DNA of 64,000 nucleotides. Source: Escherichia coli. Lineage in GTDB: Bacteria > Pseudomonadota > Gammaproteobacteria > Enterobacterales > Enterobacteriaceae. This document shows positions 27,577 through 28,698 of the stretch, piece by piece. Made by a program: the position numbers and the translations under genes. The notes beneath the pieces are model-generated. The model saw only the letters and a program-made list of their open reading frames with translations. It made no database searches and was not told the DNA's origin. Location of the stretch: NCBI RefSeq assembly GCF_003334255.1, contig NZ_QOWU01000023.1. The stretch is one strand, 5' to 3'. Position 1 is the stretch's first letter; each line of letters opens with the position of its first letter.

Positions 27577-27785
27577 TAATTCACCACAGCGATGTGGTAA
27601 CTTCGGTGAGATTGTGAAAGTTTGCACTCATCGGGGAAGGGTGAGAACCTTCGACTAAGGTTCGATTCGAGCGAAAGCGAGAGAACGTTGCCACAGGCAA
27701 CGGCCCGAAGGGTGAGGAGCGAAGCGACGAATAATCCTTCCCCCACCACCATCTCAAGCATTACCTCAAAATTTGAATTACCCCT

Positions 27786-27870
27786 GGTGGGGTTCCCGAG
27801 CGGCCAAAGGGAGCAGACTGTAAATCTGCCGTCATCGACTTCGAAGGTTCGAATCCTTCCCCCACCACCA
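27786..27870 (+). tRNA. tyrV: tRNA-Tyr (GTA), copy 2
   Basis: Identical 85-nt sequence, 294 bp downstream of copy 1. Confidence 0.97.
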
Positions 27871-28079
27871 TAATTCACCACAGCGATGTGGTAACTTCGG
27901 TGAGATTGTGAAAGTTTGCACTCATCGGGGAAGGGTGAGAACCTTCGACTAAGGTTCGATTCGAGCGAAAGCGAGAGAACGTTGCCACAGGCAACGGCCC
28001 GAAGGGTGAGGAGCGAAGCGACGAATAATCCTTCCCCCACCACCATCTCAAGCATTACCTCAAAATTTGAATTACCCCT

Positions 28080-28164
28080 GGTGGGGTTCCCGAGCGGCCA
28101 AAGGGAGCAGACTGTAAATCTGCCGTCATCGACTTCGAAGGTTCGAATCCTTCCCCCACCACCA
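28080..28164 (+). tRNA. tyrV: tRNA-Tyr (GTA), copy 3
   Basis: Identical 85-nt sequence, 294 bp downstream of copy 2. Confidence 0.97.
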
Positions 28165-28698
28165 TCACTTTCAAAAGTCCCTGAACTTCCCAACGAATCC
28201 GCAATTAAATATTCTGCCCATGCGGGGAAGGATGAGAAGCTTCGACCAAGGTTCGACTCGAGCGCCAGCGAGAGAGCGTTGCCGCAGGCAACGACCCGAA
28301 GGGCGAAGCGCGCAGCGCTGAGTAATCCTTCCCCCACCACCATCACTTTCAAAAGCCCCGGAATTCTCAAACGAATCCGCAATCAAATATTCTGCCCAAG
28401 CGGGGAAGGATGAGAAGCTTCGACCAAGGTTCGACTTGAGCGCCAGCGAGAGAGCGTTGCCGCAGGCAACGACCCGAAGGGCGAAGCGCGCAGCGCTGAG
28501 TAATCCTTCCCCCACCACCATCACTTTCAAAAGCCCCGGAATTCTCAAACGAATCCGCAATCAAATATTCTGCCCAAGCGGGGAAGGATGAGAAGCTTCG
28601 ACCAAGGTTCGACTTGAGCGCCAGCGAGAGAGCGTTGCCGCAGGCAACGACCCGAAGGGCGAAGCGCGCAGCGCTGAGTAATCCTTCCCCCACCACCA
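28165..28698 (+). repeat. rtT: Three tandem 178-bp tyrT-distal (rtT) repeats, each ending in a tRNA 3'-end mimic
   Basis: Units at 28165-28342, 28343-28520 and 28521-28698, each ending aatccttcccccaccacca. Confidence 0.9.
28232..28321 (+). CDS. tpr: Protamine-like protein Tpr (29 aa, Arg-rich)
   Basis: ORF in the first 178-bp unit translating [29 protein letters not shown]. Units 2 and 3 carry CGA to TGA at the equivalent codon, so only unit 1 is intact. Confidence 0.5.

Follow-up and report, generated by a model that had tools for sequence, protein, structure and literature searches.

In a 64,000-nt window of Escherichia coli DNA (assembly GCF_003334255.1, contig NZ_QOWU01000023.1), the array at 27414–28698 on the plus strand, situated between purU and narI, is an E. 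coli K-12-type tyrT operon: a promoter, three tRNA-Tyr genes and five RtT RNA units, two of them spacer-type and three distal. An earlier reading of the sequence alone (hereafter, the original prediction) had described copies of the tRNA-Tyr 3′ end in the spacers and distal repeats, together with a small reading frame, tpr, open only in the first repeat, and had called it unsettled whether the repeats act as processing signals, RNA products or peptide-coding units. That last statement understates the record, since the repeats belong to an established RNA family (Rfam RF00391) annotated in RefSeq as a small RNA (sRNA), and a peptide role is unsupported by comparison. The feature therefore re-describes a known system, the RtT RNA repeats, and is not new. 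Taken as a whole, our reading is that members of this family in the tyrT operon are excised by the tRNA-processing route, that their distal linkers form a Rho-dependent termination zone, that the repeats recombine with one another, and that tpr is accidental; we put the probability of this whole at roughly 0.7.

All five repeat cores match RF00391 (132.9 to 137.5 bits; Table 1), full-length over model positions 1–130 and at about three times the family's curated gathering score of 45 bits. Weak Rfam matches to sX4, STnc100 and a tmRNA fragment were far below threshold and were set aside. E. coli Origami2-DE3 carries this region with 100% identity, and there the Prokaryotic Genome Annotation Pipeline (PGAP)/RefSeq annotation shows, between purU and narI, three tRNA-Tyr genes and five copies of ‘RtT sRNA, processed from tyrT transcript’. 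MG1655 carries the same locus with two tRNAs and four RtT units, and its curated record (NC_000913.3) names rttR (171 nt), tpr (b1229), tyrV and tyrT. In the window, the RtT units are interleaved with or directly follow the three tRNA-Tyr genes, which are 85 nt each and identical. The tyrT promoter, about 50 nt upstream of the first of them, is of the strong sigma-70 type, matching 10 of 12 consensus positions in a promoter scan with a TG preceding the -10 hexamer. Tandem Repeats Finder reported a 294-bp period in 2.9 copies (27482–28344) and a 178-bp period in 3.1 copies (28146–28704).

The tRNA-Tyr 3′-end copies in the spacers and distal repeats were borne out by a 19-mer, AATCCTTCCCCCACCACCA, that is present in eight exact copies in the window, with none at one or two mismatches, and that was found in none of 100 dinucleotide shuffles (0 expected by chance). 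Its original is the last 19 nt of tRNA-Tyr copy 1 (27558–27576), with further tRNA-end copies starting at 27852 and 28146; the remaining five lie in the two spacers and three distal repeats (Table 1). The 19-mer consists of the T-loop end, the T-stem 3′ strand, the acceptor 3′ strand, the discriminator base and CCA, and this entire acceptor/T-arm 3′ strand is preserved with exact 19-nt identity in five of five units. The statement that every repeat and spacer ends in the mimic holds for the distal repeats; it does not hold for the 209-bp spacers, where the 19-mer ends 34 nt before the next tRNA (27751 versus 27785 in spacer 1). Run on the window, ARAGORN called the three real tRNAs only and no RtT unit, and the Rfam tRNA model gave no match on any RtT unit at E ≤ 1.

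The original prediction missed a complementary partner that lies within each unit and that makes the mimic part of a helix instead of a free tRNA-like end. At its 5′ side, RtT repeats the T-arm and four bases of the acceptor in inverted orientation (GGGGAAGGAUGAGAAGCUUCGA), followed by a direct AAGGUUCGA. When nucleotides 28224–28245 (GGGGAAGGATGAGAAGCTTCGA) are compared with the reverse complement of tRNA positions TCGAAGGTTCGAATCCTTCCCC, 19 of 22 bases match, a level reached by none of 500 shuffles. The inverted copy is predicted to pair with the 19-mer as a closing helix, P1, of which the mimic forms the 3′ strand, and the predicted fold leaves an unpaired 8-nt tail ending ...CACCACCA-3′. 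RNAalifold predicted P1 independently from 65 diverse units, pairing GGGAAGGAU with AUCCUU-CCC, and agreed on two hairpins as well; P1 is likewise present in both the minimum-free-energy and the centroid folds of the 171-nt RNA. Against the alignment we tested a structure of 35 pairs that combines three hairpins, two of them with tandem G·A, with P1 and the Rfam long-range helix. Paired cells amounted to 94.1% for this structure, compared with 41–47% when the partners were slid, and 15 of its pairs showed double changes, in 76 cells, which none of 500 shuffles reached. Covariation was significant in four helices, and a published covariation analysis supports most RtT helices (PMC8250186). The RtT core, about 132 nt long, is a structured RNA built partly from tRNA pieces.

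A pattern scan of one genome per species recovered 97 RtT loci from about 95 species, nearly all of them Enterobacterales, and nhmmer identified 189 near-full RtT units within these loci. The associated tRNAs are tRNA-Tyr in 157 of 158 instances, and the architectures are Y-Y-R(n) or Y-R-Y-R(n), with n = 1–6, where Y denotes tRNA-Tyr and R an RtT unit. Among the 156 units that have a tRNA in their own locus, the 3′ 17-mer of RtT is identical to that tRNA's end in 122, with CCA kept in 9 more. All four tRNA variants are mirrored by the local RtT, with zero cross-type pairings, and where an operon contains two tRNA variants the RtT end equals that of the nearest upstream tRNA (15 of 18 units). 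This correspondence extends even to a position that is unpaired in RtT, which points to concerted evolution with the upstream tRNA. The Pantoea-type tRNA has A7:U66 in place of G7:C66, and there the RtT 3′ strand has U while the 5′ strand has a compensating A. Because recombination with the tRNA cannot supply a change on that 5′ strand, the compensation argues for selection on the helix and the ACCA end. Xenorhabdus has an RtT end that no longer matches the tRNA yet still closes with ACCA, and manual pairing of the strands suggests that P1 is kept at about nine pairs, including two G·U. Judged from these sequence comparisons, two forces appear to operate together, namely concerted evolution with the tRNA and selection for the helix and ACCA. 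An Enterobacterales-type tyrT-RtT locus was also seen in an assembly named Chryseobacterium sp. 18061, which is probably contaminated or mislabelled.

During tRNA 3′ maturation, RNase E cuts a few nucleotides downstream and exonuclease trimming halts at the CCA beside a helix. Each RtT unit offers the same combination as a real tRNA, that is, a helix, a CCA and a G-poor trailer that begins with U: a U directly follows the CCA in 96% of tRNAs and RtTs alike, and the trailers after real and mimic CCA are both G-poor and pyrimidine-rich. From this resemblance we infer that the tRNA 3′-maturation route could also excise each RtT. An endonuclease would cut a few nucleotides downstream of the CCA, exonuclease trimming would then stop at the mimic CCA adjoining P1, and the product would be a discrete, stable 171-nt RNA (178 − 7 = 171). 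In NC_000913.3, rttR is annotated at 1287066–1287236 (minus strand) and tyrV at 1287244–1287328 (minus strand); in this annotation, the first base of RttR lies 8 nt beyond the tyrV CCA and its last base is the A of the mimic CCA, 178 nt past the tRNA end. Rho-dependent termination has been described for the tyrT operon, and a terminator scan found no plus-strand intrinsic terminator after the array. The linker C/G ratio is 2.8–3.5 in the distal repeats (3.5 in repeat 1) versus 0.64 after the tRNA in the spacers. Given the C-rich distal linkers and the missing intrinsic terminator, these C-rich, G-poor linkers would constitute the operon's Rho-dependent termination zone, and their contrast with the spacers suggests a reason why termination would take place only distally.

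Compared with MG1655, which has one spacer, the window contains one extra 294-bp unit of tRNA plus spacer. Its distal array reads d1-d3-d3 in MG1655 repeat order and is missing the distinct d2, a repeat with 8–9 differences and a TAA at tpr codon 6; the array as a whole has thus been both extended and reshuffled. Three tRNA-Tyr genes at this position are rare, with only about 8 records showing them in a set of 5426 complete E. coli genomes, namely TOP10, Origami2-DE3, XL1-Blue, CH4784, H10407 (duplicate SEC470), ET474 and O157:H7 F1273. A K-12 laboratory derivative is therefore the most likely origin of the window. The arrays seen in E. coli include Y-R-Y-RRR, Y-Y-R, Y-Y-RRR, Y-Y-RR, Y-R-Y-RR, Y-RR, Y-R and Y alone, RtT copy number runs from 0 to 6 among strains and species, and the laboratory strain OV2 has lost one tRNA and one RtT unit (PMC12584984). 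The shared 19-mer and the 178/294-bp repeats would drive unequal crossing-over, which in turn would produce such copy-number differences, including the third tRNA seen here. The tyrT locus is a rearrangement hot spot. Several individual loci are unusual in other ways. In strain EcPF40, an IS4 transposase follows a single RtT, and in an E. coli O25b:H4 genome of sequence type 131 (ST131), fatty-acid and sterol desaturase genes abut tRNA-Tyr with no adjacent narI. In Leclercia adecarboxylata NCTC13032 (locus L076, 2727–2882), the 5′ portion of a tRNA-Tyr gene runs at AAGGTTCGA into the 3′ portion of an RtT unit, in effect a tRNA-Tyr with an insert of about 80 nt in its T-loop, and homopolymer oddities are found nearby in the assembly. 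This chimera appears to show recombination at the shared 9-mer.

The ORF (open reading frame) listing agreed with the original prediction that tpr is open in repeat 1 only, where the frame encodes the b1229 peptide at the homologous position, and that repeats 2 and 3 carry CGA>TGA at the same codon, which is codon 10. An alignment of the three distal units, which the original prediction had proposed, showed that repeats 2 and 3 are the same and that both differ from repeat 1 at 9 positions. The 46-nt linker accounts for seven of these positions, and the other two belong to the 132-nt core: T28221>A, which turns the upstream ATG into AAG, and C28259>T, which creates the TGA. The latter converts a C:G pair to U·G in hairpin H1 (columns 61/74), so that the helix is preserved and the change is structure-neutral. 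Because the differences cluster in the linker and not in the core, and because the stop preserves the helix, the repeats evolve as RNA rather than as coding sequence.

These data bear directly on the proposal that the repeats are copies of a small basic-protein gene, functional in repeat 1 and pseudogenes in repeats 2 and 3. The 29/33-aa ORF of repeat 1 is annotated as b1229 in MG1655 and as PRTL_ECOLI in UniProt, and Altman et al. (1981) reportedly described tpr as coding. A 90-nt query of the same 5426 complete genomes found exact tpr in 2029 genome records, and one strain (locus L102) has two intact copies; the frame is closed, however, in E. coli NCTC9088 and an O157:H7 strain, and database members of the tpr protein are all from E. 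coli, with an inherited name. Homologues outside E. coli were translated from the conserved GGATGAGAA start. There, 86 of 129 ATG frames stop after 5 codons, and an ATG ORF of at least 25 codons exists in 21 of 150 units (14%; 16 of 92 loci). Beyond about codon 11, the tpr-like ORFs that are open diverge into at least three reading frames, and hence no peptide is conserved. NCBIfam holds no model for Tpr, and PGAP does not call the ORF in Origami2-DE3, MG1655 or the other E. coli loci examined. Its ATG (28232–28234) is buried in P1 (alignment columns 24–26, with columns 24–25 paired), and AAGG directly abuts it with no spaced Shine-Dalgarno. We found no ribosome-profiling or tagging evidence for tpr in the literature. 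The Keio update lists tpr deletion isolates as ‘partial duplications’; we rejected this as a sign of tpr essentiality, as this outcome would follow if primers internal to the gene had amplified repeats 2 and 3 as well. We regard a peptide-coding role as very improbable, and tpr looks like a fortuitous, lineage-specific ORF within RtT, not the reason why the repeat is conserved.

Several observations weigh against our reading of the locus as a whole. The stability of the 171-nt RNA is unremarkable (z = -1.06 versus shuffles), and in thermodynamic folding the isolated spacer adopts an alternative structure. The P1 tail is 8 nt where the tRNA tail is 4 nt, and this, together with the failure of ARAGORN and the Rfam tRNA model to see the units, means that recognition by tRNA enzymes is not guaranteed. 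No match to the distal core was found in 726 of the 5426 complete E. coli genomes, and the ST131 genome described above has a lone tRNA-Tyr and no RtT, indicating that natural strains can do without RtT. What we propose for processing and termination draws on annotated RttR ends, sequence context and the literature. Finally, internal junctions are identical to the tRNA end in 62 of 63 cases, while 15 of 60 terminal copies are degenerate, and unequal crossing-over or gene conversion alone could maintain the 3′-end identity.

This last point is the core of the view that the repeats are neutral recombination scars, in which the 19-mers mark unequal crossing-over junctions homogenized by concerted evolution and the RNA is functionless. 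The variable copy number, the many E. coli without RtT, the near-perfect internal junctions beside often degenerate terminal copies, and an RtT end that follows the nearest upstream tRNA even where it is unpaired are all consistent with it. Scars of this kind, however, do not readily fit an element that stays beside tRNA-Tyr at 97 loci across Enterobacterales, with a core far better conserved than its linker, significant covariation in four helices and a discrete 171-nt RNA annotated. Nor do they fit the compensatory change on the P1 5′ strand, or Xenorhabdus, which retains ACCA and a manually paired P1 despite the divergence of its end. We consider the scar explanation unlikely. A somewhat smaller chance is left for the RNA being a trans-acting decoy or regulator, whose CCA-ended helix or 22-nt antisense arm would bind tRNA-handling factors (RelA/ribosome A site, CCA-adding enzyme, 3′ exonucleases or RNase P) or tRNA-Tyr precursors and so modulate the stringent response. 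In its favour are the tyrT promoter, a textbook case of growth-rate and stringent control, an RtT 3′ end that copies the tRNA end exactly, and a 5′ arm that matches the antisense of the T-arm at 19 of 22 bases. A role for rtT in stringent-response modulation was reportedly suggested by Bösl & Kersten (1991) and is restated in papers that cite it. Set against this, RtT binding or target data were not found in the literature consulted, the predicted fold locks the 5′ arm into P1, many E. coli do not carry the element, and Rfam files RF00391 as cis-regulatory and not as an sRNA gene. A decoy role is nevertheless compatible with tRNA-route excision from the tyrT transcript, as a downstream role of the released RNA. 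The idea that the tRNA 3′-end duplicates are attL/attR relics of integrative elements starts from the fact that the copied T-loop-to-CCA segment is the usual integrase target, and from the foreign-looking genes that directly abut the tRNA in the one ST131 genome. There is, however, no integrase or cargo between purU and narI, and nothing but RtT units lies between the tRNAs and narI; we rejected the integrase-att reading on this gene content. The units are moreover 178 nt, tandem and structured with covariation, the inverted T-arm copy is not a product of att duplication, and the same element occupies the same place in about 95 species, all of which makes such an origin extremely improbable.

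Table 1. Features of the tyrT array, numbered from the first nucleotide of the window.
Feature	Position	Strand	Description
tyrT promoter	27414–27441	+	-35 TTTACA, 16-nt spacer, -10 TATGAT
tRNA-Tyr(GTA) copy 1	27492–27576	+	ARAGORN; Rfam tRNA model, 53.4 bits
Inter-tRNA spacer 1	27577–27785	+	209 nt; RF00391, 132.9 bits; 43-nt linker, RtT core 27620–27751, 34-nt linker; inverted T-arm copy 27633–27654; 19-mer mimic 27733–27751
tRNA-Tyr(GTA) copy 2	27786–27870	+	identical to copy 1
Inter-tRNA spacer 2	27871–28079	+	identical to spacer 1; RF00391, 132.9 bits; core 27914–28045; inverted T-arm copy 27927–27948; mimic 28027–28045
tRNA-Tyr(GTA) copy 3	28080–28164	+	occupies the tyrV position of MG1655
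Distal repeat 1	28165–28342	+	178 nt; RF00391, 137.5 bits; 46-nt C-rich, G-poor linker 28165–28210; RtT core 28211–28342; inverted T-arm copy 28224–28245; direct AAGGTTCGA 28248–28256; mimic 28324–28342
RttR (rtT RNA, 171 nt)	28172–28342	+	transferred from MG1655 annotation
tpr ORF (b1229, ‘protamine-like protein’)	28232–28321	+	29 aa; 33 aa from in-frame ATG 28220
Distal repeat 2	28343–28520	+	RF00391, 134.2 bits; core 28389–28520; mimic 28502–28520; tpr frame closed by TGA 28437–28439; upstream ATG changed to AAG (28398–28400)
Distal repeat 3	28521–28698	+	identical to repeat 2; RF00391, 134.2 bits; core 28567–28698; mimic 28680–28698; TGA 28615–28617

The narI ORF occupies 28882–29559 on the minus strand, and a minus-strand hairpin with a T-run that ends narI lies at 28863–28842. 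Between the array and this gene, we noted a promoter-like match on the plus strand (28748–28775) and, by eye, a palindrome resembling repetitive extragenic palindromic (REP) sequences at about 28780–28815; the rtT transcript has been said to resemble attenuator candidates that contain bacterial interspersed mosaic elements (BIME)/REP (PMC2965389). Two antisense ORFs run through the array on the minus strand. The one at 28424–28699 corresponds to MG1655 ychS (b1228, ‘putative uncharacterized protein’), and its start codon is the complement of the mimic ...CCACCAT, while the other, at 27483–28382, encodes 299 aa and runs across the tRNAs. Neither gave a family match or has an NCBIfam model, and both have the appearance of side products of repeats that contain no stops. 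According to a 2024 preprint (PMC11623569), a small RNA is transcribed here from the strand opposite tRNA-Tyr and acts as a repressor of distal genes. The single minus-strand terminator-like site near the tRNA genes is at 27499–27485.

RtT-like units were also encountered after tRNAs other than tRNA-Tyr. On a 4.6-kb contig labelled as a Cellvibrionaceae metagenome-assembled genome (L024, 2804–3053), a unit scoring 57.4 bits against RF00391, above the gathering score, comes after a tRNA-Gln(UUG). Its last nucleotides, AATCCTTCCACCCCAGCCA, reproduce the 19-nt 3′ end of this tRNA-Gln and not that of tRNA-Tyr; the T-arm of this tRNA-Gln equals the tRNA-Tyr T-arm. A second metagenomic contig (L116, 1543–1800) carries, in order, a tRNA-Gln without encoded CCA, a terminator hairpin, an element with GGGATGAGAACCTTCG at its start and ATCCTTCCGTCCTAAG, a copy of the tRNA-Gln end with one mismatch, at its finish, and a similar hairpin. 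The L116 element had no Rfam match at E ≤ 0.01 despite its RtT-like architecture. When metagenomes were scanned for RtT-like units whose 3′ end is not that of tRNA-Tyr, 8 contigs were returned, of which L109 (the L024 contig) and L116 were relevant; L112 proved to be an ordinary tRNA-Tyr/RtT locus, and the others, having no adjacent tRNA or RtT signal, look like chance matches. On the strength of two contigs of uncertain taxonomy, L024 and L116 hint that the element may copy whichever tRNA it follows. Together with the Leclercia chimera, they raise the doubtful prospect that RtT belongs to a wider ‘tRNA-end-templated’ class, in which a structured insert lies between inverted and direct copies of a tRNA's T-arm and acceptor strand, the 3′ end is rewritten according to the upstream tRNA, and a released CCA-ended RNA acts on tRNA-handling factors or tRNA precursors as decoy or antisense, for example in starvation. 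If this were true, RtT would be a member of a broader class of elements and not an oddity specific to tyrT.

P1, the CCA end and the shared trailer offer concrete, mutable targets for questions about the processing and function of RtT RNA. For annotation, our analysis means that tpr (b1229) and ychS (b1228), the latter on the antisense strand, are in all likelihood not genuine genes but ORFs that happen to lie in a structured, repeated RNA, and that RtT copy number, and even tRNA-Tyr gene number, varies between laboratory K-12 strains.

Among known systems, the closest is RtT RNA itself (RF00391; rttR/b4425, Bösl & Kersten 1991), which shares the locus, the sequence family and the structure, distal repeat 1 being base-for-base the MG1655 rttR repeat. 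Relative to the MG1655 RtT array, the window has five units instead of four, and nothing essential differs. The ORF at 28232–28321 encodes exactly the b1229 product known as tpr/PRTL_ECOLI (Altman et al. 1981), which is named as a protein, whereas our comparative data argue against a conserved coding sequence. The agreement extends to the classical description of the tyrT locus, in that the window shows the same 178-bp period in 3.1 copies, with the final 19 bp of the tRNA at the boundary of each, and likewise has no intrinsic terminator, C-rich linkers and copy-number variants. The classical locus reportedly contains a 178-bp sequence repeated 3.14 times and a Rho-dependent terminator, and is said to undergo unequal crossing-over between its duplicate su3 genes (Egan & Landy 1978; Küpper et al. 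1978; Rossi et al. 1981; Russell et al. 1970); it has two tRNA genes and the window three. A more distant likeness is to 3′ETS-leuZ (Lalaouna et al. 2015), reportedly a short Hfq-bound sponge that ends at an intrinsic terminator, which is a stable RNA freed from a tRNA precursor by tRNA-processing nucleases, as we propose for RtT. Unlike 3′ETS-leuZ, RtT is about 171 nt, highly structured, repeated and ended by a CCA copy, and we know of no sponge targets for it. Plant-virus tRNA-like structures and MALAT1 mascRNA reuse features of the tRNA end so that tRNA enzymes set the end of an RNA, as RtT would, but they fold as whole tRNA-like shapes, whereas RtT copies the 3′ strand only and pairs it with an antisense copy.

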